A DNA stretch of 64,000 bases from Pseudomonadota bacterium (GTDB lineage Bacteria; Pseudomonadota; Gammaproteobacteria; Xanthomonadales; SZUA-38). This document shows, piece by piece, positions 1,597 through 25,278 of this stretch (positions are counted from its first letter, which is position 1; the number at the start of each line of letters is the position of its first letter). A program made the translations under genes and the position numbers. The notes under the pieces are model-generated. The model was not told where the DNA came from, made no database searches, and worked only from the letters and a program-made list of their open reading frames with translations. The stretch lies in assembly GCA_039195135.1 (NCBI GenBank), contig JBCCVP010000009.1:1629-65628 (forward strand), given 5' to 3'.

Positions 1597-2751
1597 GTGG
1601 CCGAAATACTACTTGTCGGTGCGCGTGACGACGCGCTGACCAATCTGCAGCGCTACGTGGCCGCGCAGGAGCCTGACTGGTCCGTGGTGCACAGCCTCGA
1701 CAATCAGGGGGCGCTGGAGCGGCTGCGCAAGCGCTCCAGCGACATCGTGCTCGCCGGCATGGAAACGGAGCAGTGCGAGCTGCTTTTCTCCGAGGTGGGG
1801 GAGACGGCGCCGGGGGCGATCCGCCTGGCCCTGTCAGCGGCACCGGCTCATCTGATTCGCGGCGCCCATCAGATTCTGGCGCGGCAGAGTGAGCTGGACG
1901 ATCTGCATCAGCGGCTGCGGGCCGCCGTGCGCGTGTCCTCCCGCTCCGCCGGCCGCCGACGCCTGCAGCGGATCATCTCCCGGTTTCAGGAGGTGCCGTC
2001 ACCGCCGCAGCTCTACTTTGATATCCGGGAACAGCTCGACAGCGCCGCCGGCACGTCCACCAGCATGGCGGAGATTGCCAGCAAAGACCCGGCGCTGGTG
2101 GCGCGTACGCTGCAGATCGCCAACTCCGGCTTCTACGCCCGTTCAGGAACGGTGGGGGATCTGGTGGACGCGATCACGCTGCTGGGCACGGAAACCCTGC
2201 TGGGACTGGTGCTGGCGGCGCACCTGTTTTCGGGCATGCCGCCCCCGGGCCTCAAGCTGGACATGCTCTGGCGCCATTCCTTTTCCGTCTCTCAGCTGGC
2301 CCGGGAAATCTGCCGCGGCGAAGGCGGCAAGGCGGGTGAGGCCAGCCACAGTTTTCTGGCCGGCCTGCTGCACGACATCGGCCTGATTGTGCTGTTTCAG
2401 AACGAGCCGGCCGACTACCTGCCCATGTGGCAGGCCGCTCAGGGTGATGAGGATACGCTGGTTGACCTTGAGCGGGAAGCGTTTGAGATTTCTCACGCGG
2501 AGCTCGGTTCCATGGTGCTGACGCTGTGGAATCTGCCGGAGCGGGTGGTGTCTGCGGTTGCCGCAAGCCATGCCGGCGACCTTGCGCCGACCGATTGCCG
2601 CGTGTCTCGCGCGGTGCTGGCTGCGGAGTGGCTGCTGGGGCGCGACTGCCCGGCCACGCTGGATACGCTGCCCGCGCCGCTTGCCGACACCAGCGCCGCC
2701 ACGCTTGCGAGCTGGGTGGACGCCCGTTCCCGTTTGGAAAGCGGCAGCTGA
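1597..2751 (+). CDS. HDOD domain protein with an N-terminal receiver-like (pseudo-receiver) domain
   Basis: GTG start. The HDOD signature is present (PSPPQLYFDIREQL...IASKDPALVARTLQIANSGFYA...LLGTETL). The N-terminus is CheY-like, but the acceptor position reads DIVLAGME. Confidence 0.85.
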   Translation: MAEILLVGARDDALTNLQRYVAAQEPDWSVVHSLDNQGALERLRKRSSDIVLAGMETEQCELLFSEVGETAPGAIRLALSAAPAHLIRGAHQILARQSELDDLHQRLRAAVRVSSRSAGRRRLQRIISRFQEVPSPPQLYFDIREQLDSAAGTSTSMAEIASKDPALVARTLQIANSGFYARSGTVGDLVDAITLLGTETLLGLVLAAHLFSGMPPPGLKLDMLWRHSFSVSQLAREICRGEGGKAGEASHSFLAGLLHDIGLIVLFQNEPADYLPMWQAAQGDEDTLVDLEREAFEISHAELGSMVLTLWNLPERVVSAVAASHAGDLAPTDCRVSRAVLAAEWLLGRDCPATLDTLPAPLADTSAATLASWVDARSRLESGS

Positions 2752-2761
2752 GGTGGACGTT

Positions 2762-5725
2762 ATGAATCAGTCGGAACTGCTACGGGAATGTGTTGAAGAG
2801 TTCAAACGGCTGGCCGGTGCCCGCCATGCCAGTGTCGCGATCCACCTTTCACCCCTGGAGCGGCGATCACTTTTCGTCGCGGAAGCGGGCGCCGGCCCTG
2901 CCGTGGCTGAGCTGCAGGACGAGGCCACGGCCTGGGCGTTTATCAGCGCGCGGGACGTGGACGATGGTGATGCCCCGGTCGTCAGCGTGGTTCCGGGGAA
3001 AGAGGCCGGAACGACGCTGGTGCGCGTTGCGTTCCACGAGCTCCTGCCCCAGCCATCCTCGGAGCGGCGGGATGGACGGGAACGGCGACTTGATCCGGTG
3101 GTGCGAACGGCGCTGCCGCGAGATGGTGCGTTGTGGATCGGGCTGCGGGACGCCAGCGATGTGTCGGCGCTGGTGGGGGATCTCAACCCGGAAACCGCCT
3201 TCACCGATTCCGACCCCGTCCTCCACCGTTTGACCAACCTGTGCTGCCGGCTTGCGTTCAGCGTGTACTACCTGTCGACGCTGACGCTTGATCCGGTAAG
3301 CCAGCTGGCTGGCCGCACCCACCTGCAGGACTTTCTGCGCCGCGCGGTCAGCGCGCTTAAGCAAAGCGAACAACCGATCGCCCTGCTGCTCGTCACGGCG
3401 GACGATTTCGCCATGATCAACTGCCGCCACGGGCGGCAATTCGGTGACCAGGCGATCAGGGAGATCGCCGAGCGTTTGGAGTCCACGCTGCGCAGCACGG
3501 ACGGATTGTTCCGCTACAACGGCGCGGCGTTTGCGGTCGTGCTGCCCGCTACCAACCCCAGCCAGGCCCGGGCCACGGCAGACAAGCTGAGAACGCGGCT
3601 GGTGGGGCAGGGATACCTGGAGGAACAGCTGCCACTGACCTTCAGCATGGGCGTAGCTGTGGCAACGCCGGAAGAACTTCAGCATTGCGAAGACGCTGAG
3701 ACCGCCCTGTTCCGGCATGCCGATACGGCGCTGAACAGCGCCCGGCTTTCCGGCGGTGCTCAGTGCTGCGTGCTGTCGTTGTCGGACGAAGATGCCCCGG
3801 CCCACGGCAATCCGCTGAACGGCGTGTTTACCGCCGACACGGAAAAAGACCACCGCAACATGCTGCTGCTGTGGGATACCGTCACGCTGGTTTCCAGCGT
3901 GCCCGAGCCGGCCCAGATGGCGAGCCGGTTTGTCGAGCGGATCGCCAGCGTATTTCGCCCGGAGCGGGTGGCGCTGCTGCGCCCCGCTGAAGAGGGCCTG
4001 CAGACGGTGGCCAGCAGCCTGCGGGATGACGCCCGTCCCGACGGCCGGATCACGGGGCGCCCGATCAAGCTGAAGTCGAGTCACGCTGACCTGGTTACCC
4101 AGGCGATCGACACGCGGCAGGTGGCCCGGTCACGCACGGAGCAGGGCGCCGCGGCGTCGCGGGTGGCCTACGCCGTGCCGCTGGTTTCCGGCGCCGCCAG
4201 TCAGGGCTGCCTGTTCCTGGAAGTGCGGCGGGACACGATCAAGGTGGACTCAGCGGACGTGGTGTTTCTCAATGCGCTCGCCTCGCAAATGGCGGTCGCC
4301 ATGGAGCGGGCGGAGCTGGCGTCCCGGCAGTTTGAGGAAAAGGACCGGGAAAGCCGGTCCCTGCGAAGAGAGGTGCGGGGTCTTAGGCAGGCGCTGAAGC
4401 ACAGCCGCATGGTGTATCAATCCCAGGCGATGCACGAGGTGATGCAGCTGCTGACCAAGGTAGCGCCCACCGACGCGACAGTGCTCATCATCGGGGAAAG
4501 CGGCACCGGCAAAGAGGTGCTGGCCCGCAGCGTGCACGAGCTTAGTGACCGCCGAGAAGCGCCGTTTGTGGTGTTTGACTGTGGTGCGGTGGCCCCCACG
4601 CTGCTGGAGGCAGAGTTGTTCGGCCACATCAAAGGCGCCTTTACCGGCGCTGACAAAGCGTCCGAAGGGCATATCGCCCGGGCCGCCGGGGGCACCCTTT
4701 TTCTGGATGAAATTGGTGAATTGCCGCTCGGTATTCAGGCCAAGCTGTTGCGCTTTGTGCAGGAAAAAGAATTTGCCCCGGTGGGCAGCGCGAGCACCCG
4801 GCAGGTGGACGTGCGGGTGGTGGCGGCGACCAACCGCCGACTTGAGGACGAAGTGGCCGGCGGCCGCTTTCGCGCGGACCTTTACTACCGCCTGCGGGTG
4901 ATTGCGGTGGACGCGCCACCGTTGCGTCAGCGGCCGGAAGACATTCTGCCGCTGGCCCACTACTTCGTGGAAAAGTACGCGGTGCAGCACGGCCGGCCGG
5001 TCAGCGACCTGACGCCGGCGGCGCAGCAGAAGCTGCAACAGTATGCGTGGCCTGGCAACGTTCGGGAGCTCGAAAACAGCATCCTGCGGGCGGTACTCAC
5101 CCACGGCGACGGTCCGCTGGACGCCGCGGCGATCGAGCTGGAAACGGAAGGCCGCGCGCCGGTCGGCGCACCGGTCGCGGCGGTCTCGCCCCTGGCCCTG
5201 CCGCCCACCGCCATGCACGGCGGTCACGTCGCTGCTGACGCGGCGGTGATGCCGCCGCCGGTGGACCCCTGGGGGTCGCTGCAGGCGGAGCTTGAGCGAC
5301 AGGTGGAGCTTGCGGTGGCGGACGACGGCCGCCGTCCGGTGCCCCTGGGGCGCTGGCTGAATGAAGATCTGATCCTGCAGGCCAGCGAGGCCTGCGACAA
5401 CGTGGCGCGCCGCGCTGCGAGCCTGATCCAGGTGCCGGAGTCGACGTTCCGCCGACACTTGGACAAGGTGCACACCGGCGTCGCCAATGGCGGCCTGTTT
5501 CGCACGGATCACTGGAGCCCGGTCCGGCCGCTGCTGCGGCGGCTGATTGAGCAGGCGGACGCGGAGAGCGACAGCGGGCACAGCCTGCTGGAACGTTCCC
5601 GCTCCACGCTGCTGCGCTGTGTCCGGTCCCGGCTCGACGGACGCGCGTCCACTGCCGCGTCCCTGATGGGGGTAACGCCGCTGACCTACAAACGTTGGCT
5701 CAGCGAGCAGGAGGAAAGATCATGA
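2762..5725 (+). CDS. sigma54-dependent enhancer-binding protein: N-terminal region, degenerate GGDEF, GAF-like, AAA+, Fis-type HTH
   Basis: ATG at 2762 (MNQSELL), 10 nt after the HDOD stop. The AAA+ domain has GESGTGKE, GAFTGA and LFLDEIGE. The C-terminal HTH is ASLMGVTPLTYKRWL. The GGDEF-like block reads RSTDGLFRYNGAAF. Confidence 0.9.
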   Translation: MNQSELLRECVEEFKRLAGARHASVAIHLSPLERRSLFVAEAGAGPAVAELQDEATAWAFISARDVDDGDAPVVSVVPGKEAGTTLVRVAFHELLPQPSSERRDGRERRLDPVVRTALPRDGALWIGLRDASDVSALVGDLNPETAFTDSDPVLHRLTNLCCRLAFSVYYLSTLTLDPVSQLAGRTHLQDFLRRAVSALKQSEQPIALLLVTADDFAMINCRHGRQFGDQAIREIAERLESTLRSTDGLFRYNGAAFAVVLPATNPSQARATADKLRTRLVGQGYLEEQLPLTFSMGVAVATPEELQHCEDAETALFRHADTALNSARLSGGAQCCVLSLSDEDAPAHGNPLNGVFTADTEKDHRNMLLLWDTVTLVSSVPEPAQMASRFVERIASVFRPERVALLRPAEEGLQTVASSLRDDARPDGRITGRPIKLKSSHADLVTQAIDTRQVARSRTEQGAAASRVAYAVPLVSGAASQGCLFLEVRRDTIKVDSADVVFLNALASQMAVAMERAELASRQFEEKDRESRSLRREVRGLRQALKHSRMVYQSQAMHEVMQLLTKVAPTDATVLIIGESGTGKEVLARSVHELSDRREAPFVVFDCGAVAPTLLEAELFGHIKGAFTGADKASEGHIARAAGGTLFLDEIGELPLGIQAKLLRFVQEKEFAPVGSASTRQVDVRVVAATNRRLEDEVAGGRFRADLYYRLRVIAVDAPPLRQRPEDILPLAHYFVEKYAVQHGRPVSDLTPAAQQKLQQYAWPGNVRELENSILRAVLTHGDGPLDAAAIELETEGRAPVGAPVAAVSPLALPPTAMHGGHVAADAAVMPPPVDPWGSLQAELERQVELAVADDGRRPVPLGRWLNEDLILQASEACDNVARRAASLIQVPESTFRRHLDKVHTGVANGGLFRTDHWSPVRPLLRRLIEQADAESDSGHSLLERSRSTLLRCVRSRLDGRASTAASLMGVTPLTYKRWLSEQEERS

Positions 5726-8700
5726 AGGCCTCAGGTCTGCTTCGAAAGCTCTGCGCCGCAGCGGCCGTTCTGGCGCTGCTGTGCGCTACGCCAGCGTTCG
5801 CCGCGCAGCCGGTGGACACGCTGAAGCGGAACCTCAAGTTCGTCAATCTGACGACGGAGGATGGCCTGTCCAGCGAGTTTGTCACCGCCGTCGCGCAGGA
5901 TGGTCAGGGCTACCTGTGGTTTGCTACCCAGTCCGGTCTCAATCGCTACGACGGTCATGAGATCCGCGTGTACGAACATCGACCGGATCAGCCCAACTCC
6001 ATCAGCGACAATTTTCTCCGGGCGCTGGTGGTCGACCACCAGGGGGAGCTCTGGGTGGGCACCGGGCGCGGGCTCAATCGCTACGACGCCAGCCGCGACT
6101 CTTTTGTGCAGCGGCCGTTTGATGGCCAGCTGGCGGATCTGCGAATCCGGGCGGTGACCCAGGATGACAACGGCCGTTTCTGGGTGGGCACGGTGGCGTC
6201 GGGGCTGTTCGCTATCGACCGTGATGGCAGCAATCTGCGGCACTATAGCCACGAGCCGGGCCGGCCCGACTCGCTGCCGTCGGATCAGGTGATCACCATG
6301 CTGGAAAGCCAGACCGGGGAGGTCTGGGTCGGCACCGACGGAGGGGGCCTCGCGCGCCTCGATCGCGAGCAGCAGTCCTTTACCGTGTACCGCCACCAGC
6401 CGGATGATCCAGCCAGCCTCGCCGGCGACGAAATCCGTTCGATGTTTGAAGATCGCGATGGTTTTATCTGGGTCGGCAGCGCGCAGGGCGGCCTAAGCCG
6501 CTACAACCCGGCAACGGATCGGTTTGACCGTTTTGCCCACAACGACGAGGACCCTCTGAGTCTGGGTACCGGCCAGGTTCCAGCCATCTTCGAAGATCGC
6601 GATGGCACCCTGTGGGTGGGTACGGAAGCGGGCCTTTCTGAGTGGCGGCCTGCCCGGTCCGGCTTTGTAACCTACCGGCGCGATCGAGGCGGTCGCTACA
6701 GCCTGGTGAATGATCGCGTCAACGCGATCAGTCAGGATGCTTCCGGCGTCCTTTGGGTAGCCACCCACGGGGGCGTCAGTGCGTGGAACTACGTGAGCGA
6801 CACGTTCTTTCAATACAACGCGGAGGGCGGCTTTGTCGCCTCCGACATCGTGACCTCCGTGGCTCAGTCCCAAGATGGCCACGTGTGGGTGGCCACCTAC
6901 GGCGGTGGACTGTCACGCATCAACATGAGCGACGGCGCGGTGCGCCAGTTCCGCCATCGGCCGGGTGATGCCACCAGCCTGGCCGATGACCGGGTGATGG
7001 CGGTGTACGTCGACCAGGCGGATCAGGTGTGGGCGGGCACGCGGGACGGTGGCTTGTGCCGACTTGTGGGTGAGGACAGCTTTTCCTGCTATCAGTATGA
7101 CCCGGCCGACAGCACGTCGCTGAGCGGCAATGCGGTCACCCGGGTTTACAGCGACAGCAACGGCGACCTCTGGGTGGGCGTGTTTGGCGGGGGCCTAAAT
7201 CAGCTTCGCTGGGAAGGCGACCAGGCCCAGTTTCGCCGGTTCCGCCACGACCCGGAAAACCCGGCAACGCTGAGCTCCGACCGGGTGCTCGCCATGGCCC
7301 ACGGCCCGGATGGCTACCTGTGGGTCGGCACCGAAAGCGGCGGCCTCAACCGGCTGGATCTCGAGACCGGGCGGGTGCTGCGTTTCGATATTGAACCCTA
7401 CGCCACCAACAGCGGCGTAGATCCGGTCAGCGGCAGCCCCTGGGAACTGTATTTTTCCGAGGACGGTGCGCTCTGGATCGGCACCATGAGCCAGGGCCTG
7501 CTGCGCTGGTCCGAGCGCGATCGCGCCGCCAACCGGGCCGAGTTTGAGCGCTTTGGCCTGAACGACGGACTGACGTCCGGCATCTACGGCATCGTACCGG
7601 GCGACGACGGCAAGCTGTGGCTGAGCAGTAGCCAGGGCCTGTTTGGTTTTGACCCAAAGCGCCGGACCGTGAGGAAATTTGATCGGAGCAACGGCCTGCG
7701 CAACAACGAATTCAACGTGGGGGCGCGACTGAAAACCCAGTCCGGTGAGCTGATTTTTGGGGGCACCGCAGGATTGGTGGCGTTTTCGCCCCAGGCCCTG
7801 CCGTTCAACGCGACGCCGCCGCCGATCGCCCTGTCCGCCCGCTCCCGCCGCGCGGTGCTGGCCCGCAATGGCGATGGCGGGACGCCGCAGGTCTCGATCA
7901 CCTATCACGACCCGTTTGTCGCCTTTGATTTTGTGGCGCTGGATTTTGTATCGCCGGACAAGAACGCCTACCGCTACCGGCTGGAGGGCTACGACAGCGA
8001 CTGGAATGATGCAACGCAAATGCGCACGGCGGTTTACTCCAACCTGCCCGCCGGCAGCTACACCTTCCGGGTGAACGCCTCCAACAGCAACGGCGTGTGG
8101 AATCAGGAGGGTGAAGCGATTGTGCTGACGGTCTCACCGGCTCCCTGGGCAACAAGCTGGGCCTTCTTCGGCTACGCGTTCGCCGCCGCAGCGTTGCTGC
8201 TGTGGGCGGTGCGCCGGCAGAAGCAGAAGCGGATGGCGGAGATTGAGCAGCGCGTGAAGCTCGAGCTCCTGGTGGCCGAGCGCACCAGCGAACTTGAAAC
8301 CCGCAATACTGAGCTGGAAGCGCTGAACCGGAAGATCGAGGACGCCAGCCTGACAGACCAGCTGACGGGCCTGCGCAATCGCCGCTTTATTCACCAGTTT
8401 ATTGACTCCGACCTGTCGACGATTGAGCGCAATCACTACCGGAGTCAGCAGGATCCGGAGGCTCGCATACCCGACCAGCTGCTGTTTGTGATCATGATCG
8501 ACCTGGATCGCTTCAAGCCGGTGAACGATCGTCTTGGGCATGACGCCGGGGACCTGGTGCTGCAGATGGTCTCAGACCGCCTCACGACCTGCTGCCGCGC
8601 CTCGGATACGCCGGTGCGCTGGGGCGGCGATGAGTTTCTCCTGGTGGGCTACACGGAGACCTTTGAAGGTATCGAGACGCTGGCGGAAAAGGTCCGCGTC

Positions 8701-9054
8701 GCGTTGGGCAAGACCCTCTACGATCTGCACCCCAATGGCTCCGCCTCGCTGTCGGCCTCCATCGGCGTATCGGCGCTGCCTTTTGTGGATGGGCAGCTTG
8801 AACTCGCCAGCTGGGAGCACGTACTCGGGGCCGCCGACGTGGCCGCGTACCTTGCGAAGAACAACGGCGGCAACAGCTGGGTGAGCATCCGCGGCACCCA
8901 CCTGCTGGAGTCCAGGGACCTGATCGATCTTAAAGATGATCTGTCCAGTCTGGTCGATGCCGGCCGCATCAGCGTGAACAGCTCCCTGGGCGGTAAGCTG
9001 CGCTACAACGCTCGAAGCAAACGGGAAGTGGATATCTCCGTCGTGAGCGGTTAG
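5722..9054 (+). CDS. sensor diguanylate cyclase: signal peptide, beta-propeller/Y_Y_Y periplasmic region, TM, GGDEF
   Basis: GGAGGA RBS. The ATG at 5722 overlaps the upstream stop (ATGA). There are repeated LWVGT..GL.RYD propeller blades. One TM segment is followed by RASDTPVRWGGDEFLLVG, an intact RxxD plus GGDEF. Confidence 0.9.
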   Translation: MKASGLLRKLCAAAAVLALLCATPAFAAQPVDTLKRNLKFVNLTTEDGLSSEFVTAVAQDGQGYLWFATQSGLNRYDGHEIRVYEHRPDQPNSISDNFLRALVVDHQGELWVGTGRGLNRYDASRDSFVQRPFDGQLADLRIRAVTQDDNGRFWVGTVASGLFAIDRDGSNLRHYSHEPGRPDSLPSDQVITMLESQTGEVWVGTDGGGLARLDREQQSFTVYRHQPDDPASLAGDEIRSMFEDRDGFIWVGSAQGGLSRYNPATDRFDRFAHNDEDPLSLGTGQVPAIFEDRDGTLWVGTEAGLSEWRPARSGFVTYRRDRGGRYSLVNDRVNAISQDASGVLWVATHGGVSAWNYVSDTFFQYNAEGGFVASDIVTSVAQSQDGHVWVATYGGGLSRINMSDGAVRQFRHRPGDATSLADDRVMAVYVDQADQVWAGTRDGGLCRLVGEDSFSCYQYDPADSTSLSGNAVTRVYSDSNGDLWVGVFGGGLNQLRWEGDQAQFRRFRHDPENPATLSSDRVLAMAHGPDGYLWVGTESGGLNRLDLETGRVLRFDIEPYATNSGVDPVSGSPWELYFSEDGALWIGTMSQGLLRWSERDRAANRAEFERFGLNDGLTSGIYGIVPGDDGKLWLSSSQGLFGFDPKRRTVRKFDRSNGLRNNEFNVGARLKTQSGELIFGGTAGLVAFSPQALPFNATPPPIALSARSRRAVLARNGDGGTPQVSITYHDPFVAFDFVALDFVSPDKNAYRYRLEGYDSDWNDATQMRTAVYSNLPAGSYTFRVNASNSNGVWNQEGEAIVLTVSPAPWATSWAFFGYAFAAAALLLWAVRRQKQKRMAEIEQRVKLELLVAERTSELETRNTELEALNRKIEDASLTDQLTGLRNRRFIHQFIDSDLSTIERNHYRSQQDPEARIPDQLLFVIMIDLDRFKPVNDRLGHDAGDLVLQMVSDRLTTCCRASDTPVRWGGDEFLLVGYTETFEGIETLAEKVRVALGKTLYDLHPNGSASLSASIGVSALPFVDGQLELASWEHVLGAADVAAYLAKNNGGNSWVSIRGTHLLESRDLIDLKDDLSSLVDAGRISVNSSLGGKLRYNARSKREVDISVVSG

Positions 9055-9161
9055 CGGGCCTGGTCGTTTCGGCCAGCCGCCCGCAGGGATCGAAATGATA
9101 GGCTAGCTGGAATCCCTATCGACCCATTGGCGGCTGACGCCGATTGGAGAGGCCTTGATTG

Positions 9162-9668
9162 ATGTCTGCCTTGCTCCCCCTTGTTTTCACCGGGCTGGTC
9201 GCCGCAGCCGACGCGCCTGCGGCGACCGAACACTACTGGCACGATTGCGCCAAACGCAGCAACGTGGACCCGGAGCCGGCGCCCCGAATTCGCCGCTTTG
9301 GAGATTCGAAGGACCTGACGGACCGGCTTAACGAGCTGATCCTAGCCGGAGAAAAGACGATCACAGCGAGTTCGCCCTGGCTGTACGACCACGATAACGA
9401 GCAGCGTCCGGTCGTTGGCGGCTACTCCGTCTTCGTCGACGCGGACGGCGCTCCCGTGGGTGTCTTGCGAACGACCGAGATCAAAACCATGCCTTTTGCT
9501 GCTGTTACGGCGAACGAGAGTCGTTTCGAAGGCAAAGGGGTACGGCCTATTGAGCTGTGGCGCAACGTTCACCGTGCCTACTTTGAGGCCAGGCTGGCGC
9601 CGCTCGACAAGACCTGGGCGCCTGATATGCCGGTGACGCTCGAGTGGTTTGAGGTGGTTTGTGAGTAG
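9162..9668 (+). CDS. ASCH domain protein
   Basis: GGAGAGG RBS. The ASCH-like pattern is present (FGDS..L.D.L..LILAGEKTITASS...G...V.D..G.PV.V..T.E......A.V......EG.G...ELWR.VH..YF). Confidence 0.65.
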   Translation: MSALLPLVFTGLVAAADAPAATEHYWHDCAKRSNVDPEPAPRIRRFGDSKDLTDRLNELILAGEKTITASSPWLYDHDNEQRPVVGGYSVFVDADGAPVGVLRTTEIKTMPFAAVTANESRFEGKGVRPIELWRNVHRAYFEARLAPLDKTWAPDMPVTLEWFEVVCE

Positions 9669-12117: not shown

Positions 12118-15100
12118 TCACTCGAAGCCATCTTCAAACAGGAGGTCCTCGCCTGCGGCAATCGCCACGCTGGCGGACACCGCTTCACCCTCGTCACCGT
12201 TGAGATTTACCGGCCGGACGACGTAGGTGTACGTCTGCCCGGAAGCTGGCGTTTCGGCGAAGGTGGCTTCCATGGTTGAGGGATAACTATCCCCCAGGTA
12301 GACGGCTGAGGGTTCCCGGTTCGAGTATCGGTACACCGTATATCCCAGGTTGGGCGTTGTGTCGGCGTTCCAGCTCAGCTGCACGTCACCGGCAGAGCCG
12401 AGCATGGCCTGCAGACCGGACAGCTGCGGCGCCTGGCAGCTATCGCCCAGGCCATCGCGATCCCGGTCCGCCTGGTCCGGGTTGGCCACGGTCTGGCAGT
12501 TATCGATGGGGTTGGGAACGCCGTCTCCGTCTACGTCCGCGCAGCCTTCATCAATGTCGCCGTCGTCGTCGTTGTCGACCAGGTCACAGAGTTCCTCCCC
12601 GGGGATCGGATCGGGCAGCTCGCCCTCGATCGCTTCGGTCTGATCAAGGTCCGGATCGATACCTGGATCGCCTTTTCCGCCGTGCGCATGTGGCGCGCCC
12701 CCACCATGGGTATGACCCACGACCTTGTTCTGGTTTTTGGGAAACGGCAGGTCCCGGCTCACCTCGGGACAACGTCCCGTGCCAAACTCGCTGTCAAGCG
12801 GAGTAGGGCACCAGTTACGGTTGGCCAGGAACCACTCCCGACAGTCCAGCGGCTCCACGCCGGTGGCCAAGGTAGGAATGGCGTTTTCGTACGCTTCCGG
12901 CCAGGTGTAGCAGCTCTTCTCCGGTTCCGCACAGTTATTGCGGTAATGCCTCTGGCACTCGACGGCTGTGGGCGTAAACAGGTGATCGTCAAAACTCTCT
13001 AGCACCTTCCGGGACGAATTCTGATTGACGGATTGCGCGACGGTCCCCGAATCAATGACGCCGTTGCAGTTCCAGTCAATGCCCGGCCCGTGCTCGGGTA
13101 CGTCGAAGCTCCAGGTCCAGTTTTCCAGGCGGCGCGCCAGCGTCCGCCGACCGTCGCTGAGGATGTCCACCGGGCCCGTGGAATCGGAACAGCTGTACTT
13201 GAAAACCGGGAACGCATCGGGATGACTGGCGTGAGAACAGCTGAGGGAACGGATTTTTTGGGCGAACGGACTTACGCTGGATTCGTTGAGCCGGTCTTCA
13301 TCCAGACTGCCCAGATCTTCAACGCTGAGGGTGAGTACCGATACCAGCTCCGGCTGATAATCTTCCGGCAGCGGGTCCGGCACCGGTTCCATACAGGTCA
13401 GGCCGGAGTTGTACAGATAGTTCATCACACTGATGTAGTTAGGTTTGTAGTTTTCGCCATTCCAGCGAGCGCCGCCGGGGTTGACGAAGCCGCCCGTCGC
13501 GGTAGGCGGATCTCGAGGCGCTGGGCCGCCGTGCCCCAGTCCCGCTGTGTGACCCACCTCATGAAATAGCACCGAAGAGTGTCTCGCAACCCAGTCCTTG
13601 TCACATGACGGCCCGTCAAAGCCGCCGCCGATCCGGCAAGGGGTGGTGCAACTGGCAAAATCACCGTCGTCGAGAGGGCAGTCCGCGGCGGTGCTGCACG
13701 TCATACCGCGGCGACTTCCACCGTCGCAGCCGGTACGGCACATGGCTCCGGTGCCCGGGCACTCAAAGTCCCCCCGGCAGGATTCAAACTGCCTTGGGCC
13801 GCTGCTGCAAAAACCACCTGTCCCTTCGTAGGCTTCGACGGTGGAGAAGCGGTTTCCGCCGCCACCAGCCCCGGCAGCCGCGCGGTTATAGGCGTAGAGG
13901 AATGCCCACGCGCGTTTCGGATCAAAGTAATACTCACCGTCCTGCATCTGATAGACGGCGGTATTGTCTTTGAGGTGGGACTGGCGGTAGACGGTAGGGC
14001 GTTCGCGGTCGTGCGTTTCAAGATACAGCTTGATGCCGTTGTCTCGCAGCGCGCTTCGCATCATGTCGTAAACCTGCGGACTGGGTGCCGCTAACTCTTC
14101 CGAGTCTACCTGGAGCAGCAGGTCGCGCCGGCAGGGATGCACGCCGTAGTTCACCAGCGGCTCCAGCTCGCCGTTGGCAAAATGAATACCCGTGATCTCC
14201 CAGCCGTCCGACAACCCGTCAAGGTCCGTGTCGGGCGAATTGGGATCGGTACAAAGGCCGGCTTCGATGGCGTCGGCCAGGCCGTCGTTGTCACGGTCCG
14301 GTCCGGAATTGCCGAACAGCACCACATGGTCGTTTGAGGTTGCCGAAGCGTCTTCGTTAACCGTCGCGAAGGCCTTCAAACGAACCAAGGCGACGCGCGG
14401 TTCCGGCTCGATGACCCAGGTGCAGCTGGCTTCAGCGATGAACGTTGAGAAATCGCAGCGCCGGGCCGGGAATATGCCTCCCAGCGCGTCGGAAATGACA
14501 ATGGATTTGACGCCAGAGTCATCGGTGACGTCAGCGGTTACCGTCACCGCCTCGCCCGGAGCCGGGGTCGCGGGGGAATAGCTGAGGTCGATCTCCGGGG
14601 CCTCGCCGTCGACCAGGATTCGAAACTGCCGGCGACGCGAAACGGCCGTTCTGCCCGCCTGATCTTCGACTCTGGCTGACAGCTCATGCAGGCCTGGAGA
14701 AAAGGACCCCGTATACCGGCCCAAATAAGAGACCACGTCGTCTCCGGAAGAAAGGTCCACACTTTCGACCGGCACGCCATCGACGAGTAGCTCGATGAGC
14801 TCGATGTCTACGTCGTCGGAGGCGGAATAGGTGATTTCGACCTCGTTGACGTCGGGCACCGACGCCCGCCAGAGACCTGCGCTGATGGAAGGATTTTCAC
14901 CGTCCATGCGAGGCAGCGCAGCCAGGTCGATCTCAACCTCCTGCCAGCTTGACGGATTGGTGCTGGAGCCGCCCACGGGCCAGTCCAGGCGCCGTTCCTG
15001 ACCGGAGCCATTCAGGTAGCTGTGGAGCACCCGCAGGCGAAATATTCCAGCGGGGTCGGGGAGGATCGATCTTGGAATGCGAAACTCGATGGGAATCTCG

Positions 15101-16206
15101 AACTCAACGCCGCCGAAGTCGGCGAAAAGGCCCGCCGGATCGCCGATGGGCTCCCAGCTTGAGGTGCTGAACGGCCCACCGGTCGGCGGTGAGCCGATAA
15201 AGGACTGCAGCCCGTCGTTTTCTGGCCACAGTCGAAACCGATAGTCATCGTCAGCAAGATTGACCCCGCCATCGTTTTGCGTATCGATCTCCACCGCCCA
15301 GAACTGATCCGTTCGAATCACGCGCCGGGGCAGGCAGACGTAAAGGTAGCTGGCGTCGGCGCCAATCAAGACCGGCTGCGGATTGGGTTGATCGAAGGGT
15401 CTGTCGGCTTCGGGATACCACACGGGCATCGTGACGGCCGACGCGTAGCCCGGATCGTTACAGTCACCGTCAGCCTCGATGCCGGAAACCGGGCGAATTT
15501 TCAGCGGGTTGAACGGCTGTGGCGGCGAATCCAGCCCCGACACGGTTGCATCCGGCGCCAGCGCGCCGGGATGATTACCAAATCGTTCACCGGCGCCGGC
15601 TTCCAGAGACCACACCGCAACCAGCCCCGGCCGAGCGTCAACAATCTGCTCGTACATCGTCCGCTGGATCTGCTCCTCCGTGCGGGCCACGCGCCACAGG
15701 CGGGCTTCCGACAGGTAGCCGGCAAAGGGAAACAGGCCGTCCGGAAAGGTATCGGACGCTCCTTCGCCGCCGATGCCCAGCGGTGCGTCGTTGCGGGGCA
15801 GCTCAACTGAAAAGGTATGTTCAGCATCAGGCTCACCGTTGACATAGAGCCGGCTTTGTTCGCCGTCGTAGGTTGCGGCGATGTGCCACCAGGTTCCGCT
15901 TGTCAGCAGCTGCGACCCGTTGCGGACCGAACCGGACCCGCTCGCATAATGGCGAAGAATGCCACTGCACAGACCCAGCCAATAACCGTCATCAAAGCGC
16001 TTGCCGATAATGGTGCGACAGCCCGATAGGTCTGAGGGCCGCACCCACGCCTCAAGCGTAACGGACGATGTCGGATTCAGTTCCGGCGCGTGGGGAACAA
16101 CGACACGCTGCGTGTCGTCATTGCGCAGCAGCAGCGTTGCTGGAGCCGCGAAGGCTGGCGAACTCAGCAGAGTTGCTATAAAGATGATGAGACTTGGGCC
16201 GCGCAT
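12118..16206 (-). CDS. giant secreted multidomain metalloprotease: signal peptide, LamG/ConA-like domain, HExxHxxGxxH metzincin motif, Cys-rich region, thrombospondin type-3-like Asp repeats, FN3
   Basis: Start MRGPSLIIFIATLLSSPAFA with a GGGAGAA RBS. The motifs are HEVGHTAGLGH, DNDDDGDIDEGCADVDGDGVPNPIDNC...NPDQADRDRDGLGDSC, and an FN3-like C-terminus ending LLFEDGFE. Confidence 0.8.
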   Translation of the reverse strand: MRGPSLIIFIATLLSSPAFAAPATLLLRNDDTQRVVVPHAPELNPTSSVTLEAWVRPSDLSGCRTIIGKRFDDGYWLGLCSGILRHYASGSGSVRNGSQLLTSGTWWHIAATYDGEQSRLYVNGEPDAEHTFSVELPRNDAPLGIGGEGASDTFPDGLFPFAGYLSEARLWRVARTEEQIQRTMYEQIVDARPGLVAVWSLEAGAGERFGNHPGALAPDATVSGLDSPPQPFNPLKIRPVSGIEADGDCNDPGYASAVTMPVWYPEADRPFDQPNPQPVLIGADASYLYVCLPRRVIRTDQFWAVEIDTQNDGGVNLADDDYRFRLWPENDGLQSFIGSPPTGGPFSTSSWEPIGDPAGLFADFGGVEFEIPIEFRIPRSILPDPAGIFRLRVLHSYLNGSGQERRLDWPVGGSSTNPSSWQEVEIDLAALPRMDGENPSISAGLWRASVPDVNEVEITYSASDDVDIELIELLVDGVPVESVDLSSGDDVVSYLGRYTGSFSPGLHELSARVEDQAGRTAVSRRRQFRILVDGEAPEIDLSYSPATPAPGEAVTVTADVTDDSGVKSIVISDALGGIFPARRCDFSTFIAEASCTWVIEPEPRVALVRLKAFATVNEDASATSNDHVVLFGNSGPDRDNDGLADAIEAGLCTDPNSPDTDLDGLSDGWEITGIHFANGELEPLVNYGVHPCRRDLLLQVDSEELAAPSPQVYDMMRSALRDNGIKLYLETHDRERPTVYRQSHLKDNTAVYQMQDGEYYFDPKRAWAFLYAYNRAAAGAGGGGNRFSTVEAYEGTGGFCSSGPRQFESCRGDFECPGTGAMCRTGCDGGSRRGMTCSTAADCPLDDGDFASCTTPCRIGGGFDGPSCDKDWVARHSSVLFHEVGHTAGLGHGGPAPRDPPTATGGFVNPGGARWNGENYKPNYISVMNYLYNSGLTCMEPVPDPLPEDYQPELVSVLTLSVEDLGSLDEDRLNESSVSPFAQKIRSLSCSHASHPDAFPVFKYSCSDSTGPVDILSDGRRTLARRLENWTWSFDVPEHGPGIDWNCNGVIDSGTVAQSVNQNSSRKVLESFDDHLFTPTAVECQRHYRNNCAEPEKSCYTWPEAYENAIPTLATGVEPLDCREWFLANRNWCPTPLDSEFGTGRCPEVSRDLPFPKNQNKVVGHTHGGGAPHAHGGKGDPGIDPDLDQTEAIEGELPDPIPGEELCDLVDNDDDGDIDEGCADVDGDGVPNPIDNCQTVANPDQADRDRDGLGDSCQAPQLSGLQAMLGSAGDVQLSWNADTTPNLGYTVYRYSNREPSAVYLGDSYPSTMEATFAETPASGQTYTYVVRPVNLNGDEGEAVSASVAIAAGEDLLFEDGFE

Positions 16207-16379
16207 AGGATTCTCCCTGATCTGGTGGCGGATCATTGCCGGGAGGCCGCTGGCCGCAGCTTTACGTCAACCGAACCGAAATTCAGCCTCCAATCGTAGT
16301 ACGCAATGCCTGTTCACTTCGGATCATCTGATTTTTGCCCGCGCGACAAAGCCGTCAGCCCTTCCGCGCGCCGATGGCG

Positions 16380-16796
16380 CTAGGGCAGAAAGCCGTCGAC
16401 CACGATGCACAGGATGCCAGCGAAAGCCACCTGCCAGCAGAATGGGCGCAACCATGGAATCGCGCTGACGTAGGCCGGGACATAGAGGATACGCGCGATC
16501 AGAAACGTCCAGGTGCCGATGCCGGTCAACGGCGAAACCGAGTCTGCGGCGTAGACCAGGACAACGCTGGCGACAAACTGCGGCAGAACCTCGAGCAGGT
16601 TGCGATGGGCGCGAACCAGCCGGCCGGCCACGCCGCTTGGTGTAAACGGCTGATCGCGAGCGCTGAGGACCCACTCGGCACCTGCCTGGCGGAGCGTAGC
16701 GATGCTCGCTGCACCAACCTGCACGGCGGCCAGCACGATGACTCCGGCGAAGGCGATGAGGTGGCTGTCTCGAAGCGCCGCTGCGAGCACTGTCAA
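16380..16796 (-). CDS. MAPEG family membrane protein
   Basis: Hydrophobic MAPEG-like pattern of about 138 aa (RAHRNLLEVLPQF...ARILYVPAY). The TTG start at 16796 overlaps the upstream stop (TTGA). The start is uncertain. Confidence 0.6.
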   Translation of the reverse strand: MTVLAAALRDSHLIAFAGVIVLAAVQVGAASIATLRQAGAEWVLSARDQPFTPSGVAGRLVRAHRNLLEVLPQFVASVVLVYAADSVSPLTGIGTWTFLIARILYVPAYVSAIPWLRPFCWQVAFAGILCIVVDGFLP

Positions 16797-17323
16797 TGAT
16801 CTTCCGGCGGCATTTCGGCGGCCTGGGTTTCCGCAAGCCGGGCCGCTAGCGTTGTGTAGTCGACGTAGTCCCACTGTCGCTTGATACGGCCCTGGCGAAG
16901 CTCAAGCCAGGTTACGAAGGGCAGGTCGAATTCAATGCCAGCTACCGAACCTGTGACCTGCCCACGCACCACGGCGGTGCCCTGTATCGGTTGAGCCGGT
17001 GGGTTGTCCTGGGCGTCTACGAGCGATTCGACGGCGACGGCGGCTACTTGAAAGTGGACGTTTTCATATCGCTCAGCAGCGACGCGATAGGTATCCGTGA
17101 TCTCGACCTTGCTGGCGAGCTCGAGCCCCAAAAATACGTCGGTCAGAACGGCGTCATCGGCGTAAAAGGAAAGATGACTGCCGTCAAACTCGCTGTAGCG
17201 CTCAAAAAACGACCGAGTCCAACCCTCAAGTGCACGGTCGGCATTGGCGCTGTGGGCTGTCACCGTCACCCAGGCTATGGCGCCGATCATGGCCTGGAGT
17301 ATGGTTCGGCATGTGTCGGTCAT
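16793..17323 (-). CDS. SnoaL/NTF2-like fold protein with signal peptide
   Basis: 176 aa with an N-terminal signal-like segment. The assignment rests on size and pattern and is weak. Confidence 0.5.
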   Translation of the reverse strand: MTDTCRTILQAMIGAIAWVTVTAHSANADRALEGWTRSFFERYSEFDGSHLSFYADDAVLTDVFLGLELASKVEITDTYRVAAERYENVHFQVAAVAVESLVDAQDNPPAQPIQGTAVVRGQVTGSVAGIEFDLPFVTWLELRQGRIKRQWDYVDYTTLAARLAETQAAEMPPEDH

Positions 17324-17332
17324 ATCGATAAA

Positions 17333-17352
17333 ATGAATGAACGTTCATTCAT
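17333..17352. promoter_or_regulatory. perfect 20 bp palindrome; probable TetR operator
   Basis: ATGAATGAAC|GTTCATTCAT lies in the divergent 102 bp region between 17323 (-) and tetR at 17426 (+). Confidence 0.6.
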
Positions 17353-17425
17353 AATAAGTTCAATGCCTGGATGTAGCAAGTTTTCTCGAGAACGGTAAGC
17401 TTGCCGTTGGTCACCGGTACCTTTT

Positions 17426-18025
17426 ATGCCCCGAGTCAGTGAAGAGAAGGCGGAAGCGCGACGGGAAGCTCTGATCACGGCGGCGCTGCGGTGTTTCGCC
17501 GCCAGAGGTTTTGATGCAACAACCATGCGTGATATCAGCCGGGAGGCGGGCCTGGCGGTAGGTACCTACTATCTGTATTTCGAAGACAAGCGGGCCGTGC
17601 TTGATGCTGTGATCCGGTACCACCAGAAGCGGACTCGAGACTTTCTTGCCTCCCTTGACCAGGCCGACAAGCCGCTGGCAACCATTGAAGGGATATTCGA
17701 CGCCATATTGGGAATAGAAGCGACAGAGCTGCGGGCGCGCGCGGCACTGGATCTGCAGCTGCTCAGCGCCGCGGTGCGGGACGAAGTGCTCGCCAATTGG
17801 CTGGAGAACGTTCAGCTGGAGTGGGTTCAGGCGTTCCGTCATTTGATTGCTGCCGCTCAACGGGCCGGCGAGCTCGCACCAGAACTGTCGGCGCTGGCGG
17901 CCGCGCGAAGTCTCACGGCCTACATGCACGGCGTGGGTTTTTCCCAGGTGTTGAAGGCGGTGCCGGCGCGGTCTCTGCGCCGCGAGGTGCGGCGAGCCTT
18001 AAGGGCGATGCTGGGCGTTACCTAA
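17426..18025 (+). CDS. TetR family transcriptional regulator
   Basis: N-terminal HTH: REALITAALRCFAARGFDATTMRDISREAGLAVGTYYLYF. Confidence 0.9.
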   Translation: MPRVSEEKAEARREALITAALRCFAARGFDATTMRDISREAGLAVGTYYLYFEDKRAVLDAVIRYHQKRTRDFLASLDQADKPLATIEGIFDAILGIEATELRARAALDLQLLSAAVRDEVLANWLENVQLEWVQAFRHLIAAAQRAGELAPELSALAAARSLTAYMHGVGFSQVLKAVPARSLRREVRRALRAMLGVT

Positions 18026-22744: not shown

Positions 22745-23599
22745 GTGGACCTAATGTCCGACTCCCGCCCCCCGCTTTCGGGAAACCCTCAGCTCGACCA
22801 TCTGGCGGTAGCGCGCGCTCGTGAGCTGCAGCAATCTCTGCTGAATTCATTTTCCAGCGACGAACTTGAAGATCTGACCCGCGCCATCATCACCGGGATT
22901 ACCCGGCGTGTCGCCCACCGTACAGCGCGGCCCGAGACCCCGGATGACAGTGCGCTTGAAACGCTGGTGGATGCGCTGATCGGGCCTTCCGAAGCTGAGG
23001 CAACGCAGATGGTGCTGGAAGCCCTGGACGGCGGCATTCCCATCGATTCGATCTACCTGGATTATCTCGGCCGGGCCGCCGTCCTCCTGGGCGATCGCTG
23101 GAACGACGACCGAGCCACGCTGTTTGATGTCACCCTGGGTACGGGGCGCATCTACACCATTCTTCGAGGATTGCAGCCCCTGAGCCTGGCTCCCTGGGAG
23201 GTCGGCGCAAAGCATGCGCTGTTTGTTGCGTTAGAAAAAGATGATCACACGATCGGCGTCAACGTGGCCGCGAGCTATTTCCGCCAGCACGGCTGGCACA
23301 TCGATGTGGTCGACCACCAGAGCGACACGAATCTGGTGCACGCCATGGAGAACCTGCAGCACCAGATCGTCGGCATTTCGCTCAGCCAGCCCGAGCACCT
23401 GCGGGCGGTCATTAAGCTGGTGGTCGCTTTGCGGCTGGCGCAACCGAACGTATTTGTGGTGCTGAGCGGTCCCGCCGTCACCGGTTTCCCGGATCTGAAG
23501 CTTAAGACGGACGTGGATGCGATCGCCGAAGATGCGCCGAAAGCCCTGGATAAGTTGGAACAACTGATTACGCCGATGGAGACCCCGGGTAACGCCTAG
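22745..23599 (+). CDS. stand-alone cobalamin (B12)-binding domain protein, AerR/PpaA- or CarH-C-terminal-like, with no DNA-binding domain
   Basis: A helical cap region is followed by a Rossmann-type B12 domain with the DxHxxG motif (EKDDHTIG) and a GISLS block. Confidence 0.65.
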   Translation: MDLMSDSRPPLSGNPQLDHLAVARARELQQSLLNSFSSDELEDLTRAIITGITRRVAHRTARPETPDDSALETLVDALIGPSEAEATQMVLEALDGGIPIDSIYLDYLGRAAVLLGDRWNDDRATLFDVTLGTGRIYTILRGLQPLSLAPWEVGAKHALFVALEKDDHTIGVNVAASYFRQHGWHIDVVDHQSDTNLVHAMENLQHQIVGISLSQPEHLRAVIKLVVALRLAQPNVFVVLSGPAVTGFPDLKLKTDVDAIAEDAPKALDKLEQLITPMETPGNA

Positions 23600-25278
23600 C
23601 TCATGGCCCGGGCCGCCGTGTCCTCGGCAATCCTTGAGGAGAAACAGGCTTCCGCAGCCAGCGCCGGCACCTTCGCTGGCGCAATCGGCGCACTGAAAAA
23701 GAACCCCTGCACCAGGTCGCACCCGAGCCCCTGCAGCACGTGGATCTGCTCCAGCTCCTCCACACCTTCCGCCACCACGCGAAACCTCATGGCCTGACCC
23801 AGCGCCATGATCGTGCCCAGCAGCACTGCGTCCTGGGGGTTATCGAGAAGGTTGGTGATGAAGCTGCGATCGATCTTCAGGCAGTCGATGGGCAGATCTT
23901 TCAGAGACCCGAGGGAGGAGTAGCCGGTGCCAAAGTCATCAATGGCAACCCGCACTCCGGTTTTCCTCAAGCCCTCCAGCAGCGCAGCGCTGTCCGCCCC
24001 GGATTGAATGCCGGACTCGGTGACTTCAATTTCCAGCTGTTCCGGCGCCAGGCCAGCTTCTGACAGCTCCCGCCGCACCGTAGCCAGCAGGCTCGCGTCC
24101 GCCAGGTGCCGCGGGGCAATGTTGACGCTCACGCGAGTATCCGGAAGGCCCTGTTCCCGCCAGCTGGCTACCTGTTGGCACGCCGCGCGAAGCACCCAGT
24201 TTCCCAGGTCCTTGATCAGGCCGAGGCGTTCGATTTCCGGCACAAATTCACCCGGTGGCACCAGCCCTCGCTTCGGGTGCTGCCAGCGAACCAGCGCCTC
24301 CCAGCTCCATATGCGACCGGTTGGTAGATCCACCTGGGGCTGGTAATGGAGCACAAACTGATTTTCTCGGATGGCCGCGCGCAGCTCCTGGGCCAGCGTC
24401 AGCCGGTCGGCGGCCTGTTTGGACATCTCCGCATCAAAAAACTCAAAGCGGTGGTGGCCCGCGACCTTGGCGGCATACATGGCGTTGTCGCCGGCCTGCA
24501 TGATGGATCGGGCATCATTGCCATCCATCGGATAGCGGGCGACACCGATACTCGCCCTCGGCTTAAAACGCTTTCCTACCAGGGTGATCGGTTGTCCGAT
24601 ATTGTTGATGCAGCGTTCGGCAAGCCGGGCGATATCTGCTTCGTCCGTCAGATCCTCCAGCAGGATGCAGAACTCATCACCCCCCAGGCGAGCCACCAGG
24701 TCGTTTTCCCGGGCCGATGCCAGCAGCCGCCGGGCGATTTCTTTCAACAGTTCGTCACCGGCTTCGTGGCCGAGGCTGTCGTTTACGTCTTTGAACGCAT
24801 CCAGATCGAGATAGAACAGCGTGAAGCCGACCTTTCGCCGTTTTGCTGAGCTGATCATCTCCTGCAGCCGGCGATTGAGATTTCCACGGCTCGCAAGGCC
24901 CGTCAGGATGTCAAAAAAGGCCATCTTGTGAATGGACGCAACGTGCTCATGCATCCGTTCCCGAAGGATGGCGAAATCCCTGGCGATCTGGCCAACCTCG
25001 TCGTCCTGCACCTCTCTCTGCCGGGGTTCGAATTCGGCGCTGAAGTCGCTCTTTACGAATGCCTGAATGTCCTCCGAGAGGCCGCGCAGGGGCCGGGTGA
25101 GCGACTTGGCCAGATAGCTGCTGAGGGCAATGCACGCCAGCACACCCAGGCTGATGGCCAGGTATAGTCCGGCCCCCAGATGCTCCTGCTGATACTGGTA
25201 AAACGCCAGGCACAGGCCCGCCGAGATGCCCATCATAATCAGGAAGCACAGCAGTAGTTTGGTTCGAAAGGTCAGCAC
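23596..25278 (-). CDS. membrane HAMP-GGDEF-EAL c-di-GMP turnover protein
   Basis: Two TM segments, HAMP, RLGGDEFCILL, and an EAL domain (WEALVRWQHP...DDFGTGYSSL). Confidence 0.9.
   Translation of the reverse strand: MLTFRTKLLLCFLIMMGISAGLCLAFYQYQQEHLGAGLYLAISLGVLACIALSSYLAKSLTRPLRGLSEDIQAFVKSDFSAEFEPRQREVQDDEVGQIARDFAILRERMHEHVASIHKMAFFDILTGLASRGNLNRRLQEMISSAKRRKVGFTLFYLDLDAFKDVNDSLGHEAGDELLKEIARRLLASARENDLVARLGGDEFCILLEDLTDEADIARLAERCINNIGQPITLVGKRFKPRASIGVARYPMDGNDARSIMQAGDNAMYAAKVAGHHRFEFFDAEMSKQAADRLTLAQELRAAIRENQFVLHYQPQVDLPTGRIWSWEALVRWQHPKRGLVPPGEFVPEIERLGLIKDLGNWVLRAACQQVASWREQGLPDTRVSVNIAPRHLADASLLATVRRELSEAGLAPEQLEIEVTESGIQSGADSAALLEGLRKTGVRVAIDDFGTGYSSLGSLKDLPIDCLKIDRSFITNLLDNPQDAVLLGTIMALGQAMRFRVVAEGVEELEQIHVLQGLGCDLVQGFFFSAPIAPAKVPALAAEACFSSRIAEDTAARAMS

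Follow-up and report, generated by a model that had tools for sequence, protein, structure and literature searches.

The 64,000-nucleotide stretch analysed here (the window; positions 1,629 to 65,628 of contig JBCCVP010000009.1, assembly GCA_039195135.1, from a member of the Xanthomonadales lineage SZUA-38) contains at positions 2762 to 5725 a gene for a sigma-54 enhancer-binding protein in which a degenerate diguanylate cyclase (GGDEF) domain lies ahead of a sigma-54 AAA+ module. The locus raises the question of what a dead cyclase domain does in a transcriptional activator. The answer that is slightly favoured, on the evidence of sequence, is that the regulatory half of the protein senses cyclic di-GMP (c-di-GMP) via the retained RxxD inhibitory site (I-site) of the dead GGDEF domain, and that the activator acts at sigma-54 promoters marked by a palindrome. 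This proposal is supported by the domains, motif conservation, synteny and promoter architecture described below, from which we infer nucleotide binding itself. It has long been predicted that degenerate GGDEF-only proteins with a retained I-site could serve as c-di-GMP effectors, but they seldom carry output domains; most are joined to nothing but additional sensor domains, so that their outputs are obscure (Seshasayee et al. 2010, PMC2952852). The activator family, in contrast, does carry an output domain: the candidate receptor forms one polypeptide with output machinery that is well understood, namely a sigma-54 AAA+ activator ending in a DNA-binding region.

The open frame of the activator gene extends from 2558 to 5725, and the plausible start is the ATG at 2762, which is preceded 8 nt upstream by GAGG and lies 11 nt past the stop codon of the preceding gene. 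The product (NCBI MEM9529877.1), encoded in a metagenome-assembled genome, is annotated just as 'sigma 54-interacting transcriptional regulator'. The gene and its parts are as follows.

2762–5725, + strand: sigma-54 enhancer-binding protein, 987 aa, with a GAF-like N-terminal domain, a degenerate GGDEF domain, a GAF domain, an AAA+ module and a double helix-turn-helix (HTH)
2762–3286, + strand: N-terminal alpha/beta domain, GAF/PAS-like (aa 1–175), from the secondary structure and predicted local distance difference test (pLDDT) values of the AlphaFold2 model; includes a flexible loop with two conserved arginines (R108, R109)
3287–3781, + strand: degenerate GGDEF domain (aa 176–340), from Pfam, PDB sequence matches and template modelling (TM) scores
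3491–3502, + strand: I-site motif RSTD (R244–D247), invariant in 26 orthologues
3518–3532, + strand: NGAAF (aa 253–257), replacing GG[DE]EF; family consensus GGA[IV]F
3809–4309, + strand: GAF domain (aa ~350–516), Pfam GAF_3; first helix with the near-invariant FTADxxKDYRNMLLLWDT
4412–5155, + strand: sigma-54 AAA+ module and lid (aa 551–798), from Pfam; GAFTGA at nt 4634–4651
5267–5722, + strand: helical C-terminal DNA-binding region with two Fis-like HTH segments (aa ~862–908 and 962–986), from HTH_8, predicted helices and conserved columns

The Pfam GGDEF profile matches aa 176–332 with an E-value of 3.4e-27, covering profile positions 3–159 of 161. Downstream of it are GAF_3 (aa 383–516, E 8.9e-9), Sigma54_activat (aa 551–716, E 4.9e-67) and AAA_lid_14 (aa 722–798). 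The AAA+ module has the features of a sigma-54 activator, i.e. membership of the Sigma54_activat family, Walker A (GESGTGKE, aa 578–585), Walker B (LFLDEIGE, aa 646–653) and the GAFTGA loop (aa 625–630). The segment RSTDGLFRYNGAAF at aa 244–257 reads RSTD-GLFRY-NGAAF, that is RxxD, a five-residue spacing and then the replaced motif. The initial annotation, which placed a GAF-like domain and a canonical AAA+ module downstream of a GGDEF block with RxxD intact and GG(D/E)EF changed to NGAAF, is thus correct in these respects. No NCBIfam equivalog cut-off was reached among NifA, NorR, RtcR and others, the best being NifA with 336.6 bits against a cut-off of 528.9. The first 175 residues gave no Pfam match; however, they have the alpha/beta order typical of GAF/PAS domains, and Pfam assigns a GAF domain to the equivalent part of the relative P0154. 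Hence, the architecture is drawn as GAF-like, degenerate GGDEF, GAF, AAA+ and two HTH segments. At the C-terminus, the HTH_8 match is weak (aa 869–902, E 0.11), with a match at the same place in the relative P0153 of E 1e-5, and the last 190 residues were modelled as a confident helical domain with two Fis-like HTH segments.

A full-length AlphaFold2 model built on 73 family sequences gave a mean pLDDT of 88 and a predicted TM score (pTM) of 0.53, at which the domains are reliable and their mutual arrangement is not. The model of aa 1–345 alone had a pLDDT of 90.3 and a pTM of 0.82. It superimposed on GGDEF crystal structures with TM scores of 0.85–0.90 (GcbC 5euh, Dcsbis 4zmm and 3ign) and, over its whole length, fitted cyclases of the sensor-linker-GGDEF type, such as the GAF-GGDEF enzyme 4zmu. 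The best PDB sequence matches of the GGDEF block were the cyclases GcbC, WspR and PleD. Judging by the models, the GGDEF fold is no chance resemblance, and the fold assignment made initially stands on both the TM scores and the Pfam profile. The modelled AAA+ part reached TM scores of up to 0.96 to the AAA+ domains of FlrC, NtrC1 and FleQ, and its sequence scores were 240–255 bits for ZraR and NtrC1 and 236 bits for FleQ.

Conservation within the GGDEF domain was assessed in 102 family representatives that have Walker A and a GA[FY]TGA loop, 100 of which carry a degenerate motif. The commonest forms among these 100 were GGAIF (24) and GGAVF (22), and the catalytic D/E-E pair is replaced in every one. 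Position 255, acidic in active cyclases, is A or V in 96/100, and position 256, likewise acidic in active cyclases, is V, I, T or M in 91/100. The first metal-binding Asp has become Asn in 75/100 and is Thr in the window protein (D327 equivalent), which therefore has no GG[DE]EF with Mg-binding Asp/Glu and does not qualify as an active cyclase. The RxxD motif five residues upstream is intact in 92/100 members, and RSTD is invariant among the 26 orthologues. In the 73-sequence alignment, only five residues of the regulatory half are invariant, namely R244, N220, A327, D363 and R365. Position 275 is K or R in 83/100, and K275 corresponds to PleD R390 in an ungapped alignment; Lys is found at this position in WspR as well. 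The equivalents of PleD N335 and D344, which contact guanine, are kept in 98/100 (N220 and D229 in the window protein), and that of PleD K442 is K/R.

The domain therefore combines the GGDEF fold, loss of the catalytic motif and metal ligands, and RxxD with a further basic residue, as in degenerate GGDEF domains of the receptor type. The receptor pattern proposed by analogy with PelD and PopA is upheld at the level of sequence, with R244 invariant in 73 sequences, RxxD in 92/100 members and the catalytic pair lost in 100/100. The overall pattern points to a nucleotide-binding domain that is under purifying selection and cannot catalyse.

Two further conserved elements of the regulatory half lie outside the GGDEF domain. 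A motif [EQ]RRxx[TS]D (aa 105–112, window 3074–3097) lies in a loop of the N-terminal domain that is otherwise variable and has low pLDDT, and its two arginines are present in 74/100 members; this loop may hold c-di-GMP as a second arginine clamp. In the GAF domain, the first helix, FTADxxKDYRNMLLLWDT (aa 356–371, window 3827–3874), is the most conserved feature of the regulatory half, with D363 and R365 invariant and DYR present in 98/100, and it is kept even where RxxD is lost.

The combination can be placed among known systems. PelD of Pseudomonas aeruginosa and PopA of Caulobacter crescentus share the GGDEF fold, the lost catalytic motif and an RxxD five residues upstream, and PelD also has a GAF domain before GGDEF. 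However, their outputs are a polysaccharide synthase and a proteolysis adaptor, respectively, and neither is fused to an AAA+ or DNA-binding module, unlike the activator; the sequence family also differs from that of PelD, given the best PDB matches to GcbC, WspR and PleD. Both PelD and PopA are listed as RxxD receptors (PMC10333796). At the other end, NifA, NorR and FhlA share with the activator a GAF domain, linker helix, sigma-54 AAA+ module and Fis-like HTH, and the best NCBIfam scores, far below the cut-offs, were for NifA and NorR. Unlike these proteins, the activator has additional GAF-like and GGDEF domains at its N-terminus and a double HTH. It thus appears to resemble PelD and PopA at the input end and NifA and NorR at the output end.

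FleQ, FlrA, FlrC and VpsR belong to the same AAA+ family (TM score ~0.9), and c-di-GMP is presumed to be the input here as well. They are reported to have REC-type N-termini and to bind c-di-GMP on the AAA+ domain itself, whereas the activator has a separate, GGDEF-derived candidate receptor; the initial contrast with FleQ- and VpsR-type binding is borne out by these reported AAA+ sites. The FleQ-type site consists of LFRS, R/N after Walker A and ExxxR; in a comparison made by eye, the window protein appeared to have ARS for ARN and YxxxK for ExxxR.

An exhaustive HMMER search with aa 1–545 against 1.84 billion representatives clustered at 50% identity found 131 representatives at E ≤ 1e-30, most of 940–1080 aa, so that the GGDEF-sigma-54 architecture occurs in ~100–130 such clusters. 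Pfam detected both GGDEF and Sigma54_activat in all ten distant representatives inspected. In a pattern scan covering a single genome for each GTDB species, orthologues of 35–63% identity were recovered from ~24 Gammaproteobacteria, including Thiogranum, Thiolapillus, Sedimenticola, Methylomonas, the cultured Thiocystis violacea DSM 208 (WP_200327800.1) and metagenome-assembled genomes of Lysobacterales. A word-indexed homologue search, even with a 22-sequence profile, returned just one true orthologue; this reflects a limit of the tool used and not the size of the family, which was accordingly taken from the exhaustive search and the genome scan. The co-occurrence search proposed with the initial annotation, carried out with HMMER and Pfam, thus reveals a real family of ~100 clusters. 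No GGDEF-containing enhancer-binding protein was found in c-di-GMP effector reviews of 2020, 2023 and 2025 or in a full-text literature search of incomplete coverage. The family is therefore rare but real, and the domain combination is indeed unusual, being generically annotated and absent from effector reviews up to 2025.

Two rare relatives have apparently active motifs together with GAF, sigma-54 AAA+ and HTH_8 domains, P0154 with GGEEF (locus L028, 1940–5104) and P0166 with GGDEF (locus L029, 1061–3826). Their Pfam GGDEF scores are 137–145 bits versus ~90, and they lie in unrelated gene contexts that lack the HDOD gene and the partner cyclase gene described below. Their intact motifs suggest that the activator family descends from cyclase-activator fusions.

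The activator gene is the middle one of three.

1597–2751, + strand: pseudo-receiver and HDOD protein (384 aa), with which the conserved trio of genes opens; Pfam HDOD E 4.7e-43
5722–9054, + strand: periplasmic-sensor diguanylate cyclase, 1110 aa, with a signal peptide, nine Reg_prop repeats, Y_Y_Y, a transmembrane helix and GGDEF

The N-terminal 120 residues of the HDOD protein resemble, by their sequence pattern, a receiver without the acceptor Asp; there was no Pfam REC call in this part. The protein matches the MmoQ structures 3LJX and 3P3Q (E ~1e-13). On the other side, the stop codon of the activator gene and the start codon of the cyclase gene overlap in ATGA at 5722–5725, behind the Shine-Dalgarno sequence GGAGGA. 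The cyclase itself carries RASD-x5-GGDEF, with RxxD and GGDEF both kept in 14/14 complete orthologues. Hence, the translational coupling to a periplasmic-sensor cyclase with an intact motif and the position behind an HDOD pseudo-receiver, both noted at the outset, were recovered, the receiver part of the latter by sequence pattern. The order HDOD-activator-cyclase is common to ~24 gammaproteobacterial genomes, often with overlapping stop and start codons. By tblastn, the HDOD gene lies directly 5' of the activator gene in at least 17 loci, and the cyclase gene is downstream in most. The cyclase gene is nevertheless set apart from the activator gene, with a sigma-54 promoter of its own, in about half of the loci.

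A comparable gene pair is that of MmoQ and MmoR in Methylococcus capsulatus, where a receiver-like HDOD protein is encoded beside a GAF-containing sigma-54 activator, MmoR, as in the window. HDOD proteins such as SadB are also said to feature in papers on c-di-GMP-related pathways. The MmoQ system includes the histidine kinase MmoS and controls methane monooxygenase (PMC7994243). Unlike the window locus, it has no GGDEF components.

Promoters were sought in 26 related loci (L numbers) and the window, 526 kb in all, by a scan for TGGCAC-N5-TTGC with at most one mismatch. The sigma-54 boxes cluster just 3' of the activator gene on the same strand. Each genuine box is preceded, 120–193 nt upstream, by a 22-bp palindrome with the consensus ATTTCGG-N8-CCGAAAT, which is perfect in L016 (861–882) and L009 (14278–14299); other copies include L007 13035, L010 2513 and 6402, L013 5518 and L015 14449. 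There are 17 such pairs of box and palindrome, all on the activator's strand, whereas 50 block shuffles yielded 0.2 on average and never more than 2. We infer that the palindrome is the candidate binding site of the activator family. Three boxes (L008 15284, L011 3940 and L015 19527) were discarded as coding sequence for the HGTHVAG motif of subtilases.

The first gene past the box is the cyclase gene in six loci (L006, L007, L010, L012, L013 and L023), a stand-alone EAL gene in two (L004, Pfam E 1e-58, and its L002 homologue, assigned by sequence) and a Peptidase_S8 gene in six (L008, L009, L010, L011, L015 and L016). In L004 (EAL 16436–17557) and L002 (EAL 6957–8077), the closest relatives with 63% identity, the EAL gene follows the cyclase gene and has its own palindrome and box. 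In the window, a gene for an ASCH-domain protein (9159–9668) is found at the place of the relatives' EAL gene. If the activator acts at the palindrome, it would control c-di-GMP synthesis or breakdown, as expected of a c-di-GMP-sensing regulator with feedback. The activator family thus probably controls adjoining c-di-GMP enzymes and secreted proteases. A circuit running from signal to c-di-GMP to sigma-54 transcription would fit, and is supported by, the conserved synteny of the trio and the palindrome-bearing promoters before cyclase, EAL and S8 peptidase genes. No conserved sigma-54 promoter was found directly 5' of the HDOD gene among the relatives, and the HDOD-activator-cyclase operon is probably driven by a promoter of a different type.

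The S8 peptidases in the candidate regulon have C-terminal GYLW[AS]D repeats. These six-residue repeats are in tandem, with up to ~10 copies (L016 3250–3440, L009 ~17150–17330 and L017 ~8470–8560), and are preceded by a conserved module of 55 aa.

The window includes one of the 17 pairs, upstream of the HDOD gene.

1017–1075, + strand: region resembling an upstream activator site, with three copies of CGCCGGAATT; a weaker relative of the family palindrome
1179–1193, + strand: perfect sigma-54 -24/-12 box, TGGCACAGGCCTTGC, with 0 mismatches
1191–1423, + strand: 3' remnant of a subtilisin-like S8 peptidase gene, ~75 codons, with a GYLWA[DN] tail and the frame broken near 1390
1447–1482, + strand: intrinsic terminator of the remnant, a GC-rich hairpin (1447–1475) followed by T8; -38.6 kcal/mol, z -5.2

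The box at 1179–1193 coincides with the 1179 promoter named at the outset. The best palindrome match is TTTTCGGAAATACGCCGGAAT at 1028–1048, with an N7 spacer and two mismatches, 151 nt 5' of the box. Positions 1191–1358 match the final portion of the S8 peptidase gene that lies 5' of the HDOD gene in L016 (tblastn, 59% identity over 56 aa, E 6e-16), and an equivalent terminator follows the intact S8 gene there. No upstream part of the peptidase gene, the body of which is ~2.3 kb in L016, was found anywhere in the window. Judged by this homology, the window retains the promoter and, joined directly to its box, the tail of a target peptidase gene, the gene body of which is deleted. The HDOD-activator-cyclase operon lies past the remnant's terminator. 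Since the 1179 promoter stands before a remnant and a terminator, it would be a poor reporter target in this genome. A small open reading frame or small RNA driven by this promoter was considered and rejected given the homology to S8 3' ends, the broken frame and the presence of that gene's terminator, and an Rfam search of 900–1700 found no riboswitch or small RNA between the box and the operon. Between the upstream site and the box there is an AT-rich stretch, AAATCACTGGTTT (1125–1137, + strand), that is loosely like a binding site of integration host factor and differs from WATCAANNNNTTR at two positions; relatives have comparable AT-rich stretches in the corresponding location.

A mechanism that would accommodate these features can be outlined. 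A periplasmic signal would be turned into c-di-GMP, mainly by the co-translated cyclase, and c-di-GMP would bind at the R244-x-x-D247 and K275 surface of the degenerate GGDEF domain, probably as an intercalated dimer. The bound dimer might also form a bridge, of the kind known from PleD, with the RR loop or with a different domain. Binding could then be relayed by the GAF domain and the linker helix of ~50 residues (aa 497–545) to assembly or ATPase activity of the AAA+ ring, with the C-terminal HTH placed on ATTTCGG-N8-CCGAAAT ~120–190 bp 5' of sigma-54 promoters. The targets in relatives would be the cyclase itself, an EAL phosphodiesterase and secreted S8 peptidases, and the pseudo-receiver/HDOD protein would be a third partner. 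The outcome would be a compact feedback module joining envelope signal, c-di-GMP and sigma-54 transcription. A comparison of feedback logic fits activation and inhibition by c-di-GMP alike, in that lineages in which the cyclase is the target and those in which the EAL protein is the target would receive opposite feedback with either sign. In its fullest form, the proposal is that of a new class of activator, in which a c-di-GMP dimer clamped by RxxD/K275 and R108/R109 switches AAA+ assembly via the GAF domain and linker, controlling its own cyclase or an EAL protein (feedback) together with GYLW-repeat subtilases, and with the HDOD protein as co-regulator. This version is put forward tentatively, as a possibility on which we would not rely.

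Several observations weigh against c-di-GMP sensing at the I-site and action at the palindrome. The base-binding half of the old active site is preserved too, and more strictly than RxxD (98/100 vs 92/100). The full-length model (pTM 0.53) is silent on how the I-site faces the other domains. That the eight members without RxxD more often lack K/R275 and RR as well (Fisher p ~0.027 each) speaks for the proposal, but these co-loss statistics are small, ignore phylogeny and give just a hint. The palindrome is assigned to the activator protein by adjacency alone, and the sole matching promoter in the window has a weaker palindrome and stands before a decayed gene and a strong terminator.

Retention of the N335 and D344 equivalents in 98/100 members means that the ligand could bind in the residual half of the active site or could be another guanine nucleotide. 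The dead GGDEF domain would then sense GTP, (p)ppGpp or pGpG, much as the Caulobacter protein PdeA (CC3396) senses GTP, and would tie transcription to nucleotide pools. The K/R at the K442 equivalent is in keeping with this, GTP-binding degenerate GGDEF domains have been described (PMC2952852), and PleD structures with (p)ppGpp are available (9g85 and 9g86; bioRxiv 10.1101/2025.08.22.671821). However, the loss of the R446 equivalent and of the two metal ligands, the first Asp and the Glu of GGDEF, should weaken the binding of triphosphates. Nor would this reading account for the near-invariance of RxxD, the tight coupling with a cyclase or the presence of cyclase and EAL genes among the targets. 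This alternative is considered unlikely. The genetic coupling can also be read differently, in that the GGDEF domain may be a protein-interaction module that pairs with the GGDEF domain of the cyclase or with itself and reads the conformation of the cyclase instead of free c-di-GMP. Co-assembly is favoured by the overlap between stop and start codons, GGDEF domains function in dimeric form, the synteny involves one particular cyclase throughout, and interaction roles of GGDEF domains, for example with HubP, are reportedly documented. Yet the cyclase gene is separate, with its own sigma-54 promoter, in about half of the loci, the cyclase is in the membrane whereas the activator must bind DNA, and conservation is centred on the nucleotide-contacting residues, so that pairing of this kind seems improbable.

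The existence of P0154 and P0166, in which intact GGEEF/GGDEF motifs are fused to GAF and sigma-54 domains, allows the GGDEF domain to be regarded as a relic of an active cyclase-activator fusion, the true sensor being the GAF domain or the N-terminal domain, for another small molecule, or the HDOD partner. GAF domains regulate NifA, NorR and FhlA, and here nothing in the regulatory half is better conserved than the GAF helix KDYRNMLLLW (98/100). A relic is nevertheless not expected to show a uniform GGA[IV]F replacement, nor the 92–98% retention of R244, D247, N220 and D229 across lineages that are only 30–45% identical; such strong and specific conservation disfavours this explanation, which is judged very doubtful.

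Sensing of c-di-GMP through the I-site, if true, would be a further way for enhancer-binding proteins to read this nucleotide, unlike the AAA+ sites reported for FleQ, FlrA, FlrC and VpsR. HDOD pseudo-receivers would gain a defined partner, and sulfur-oxidising and Lysobacterales-like Gammaproteobacteria, which have been little studied, would contribute a compact module that leads from sensor to promoter. Given a known output machine, a candidate binding site and a candidate regulon, the hypothesis is directly testable in vitro.

Elsewhere in the window, a second c-di-GMP gene encodes a GGDEF-EAL protein of 560 aa (23596–25278, - strand; Pfam E 1e-43 and 1e-73), and no sigma-54 box or palindrome was found near it. 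The gene at 12118–16236 (- strand) encodes a secreted protein of 1372 aa with an N-terminal Laminin_G_3 domain, a bacterial Ig domain and, near the C-terminus, Asp-rich repeats that resemble thrombospondin type 3.

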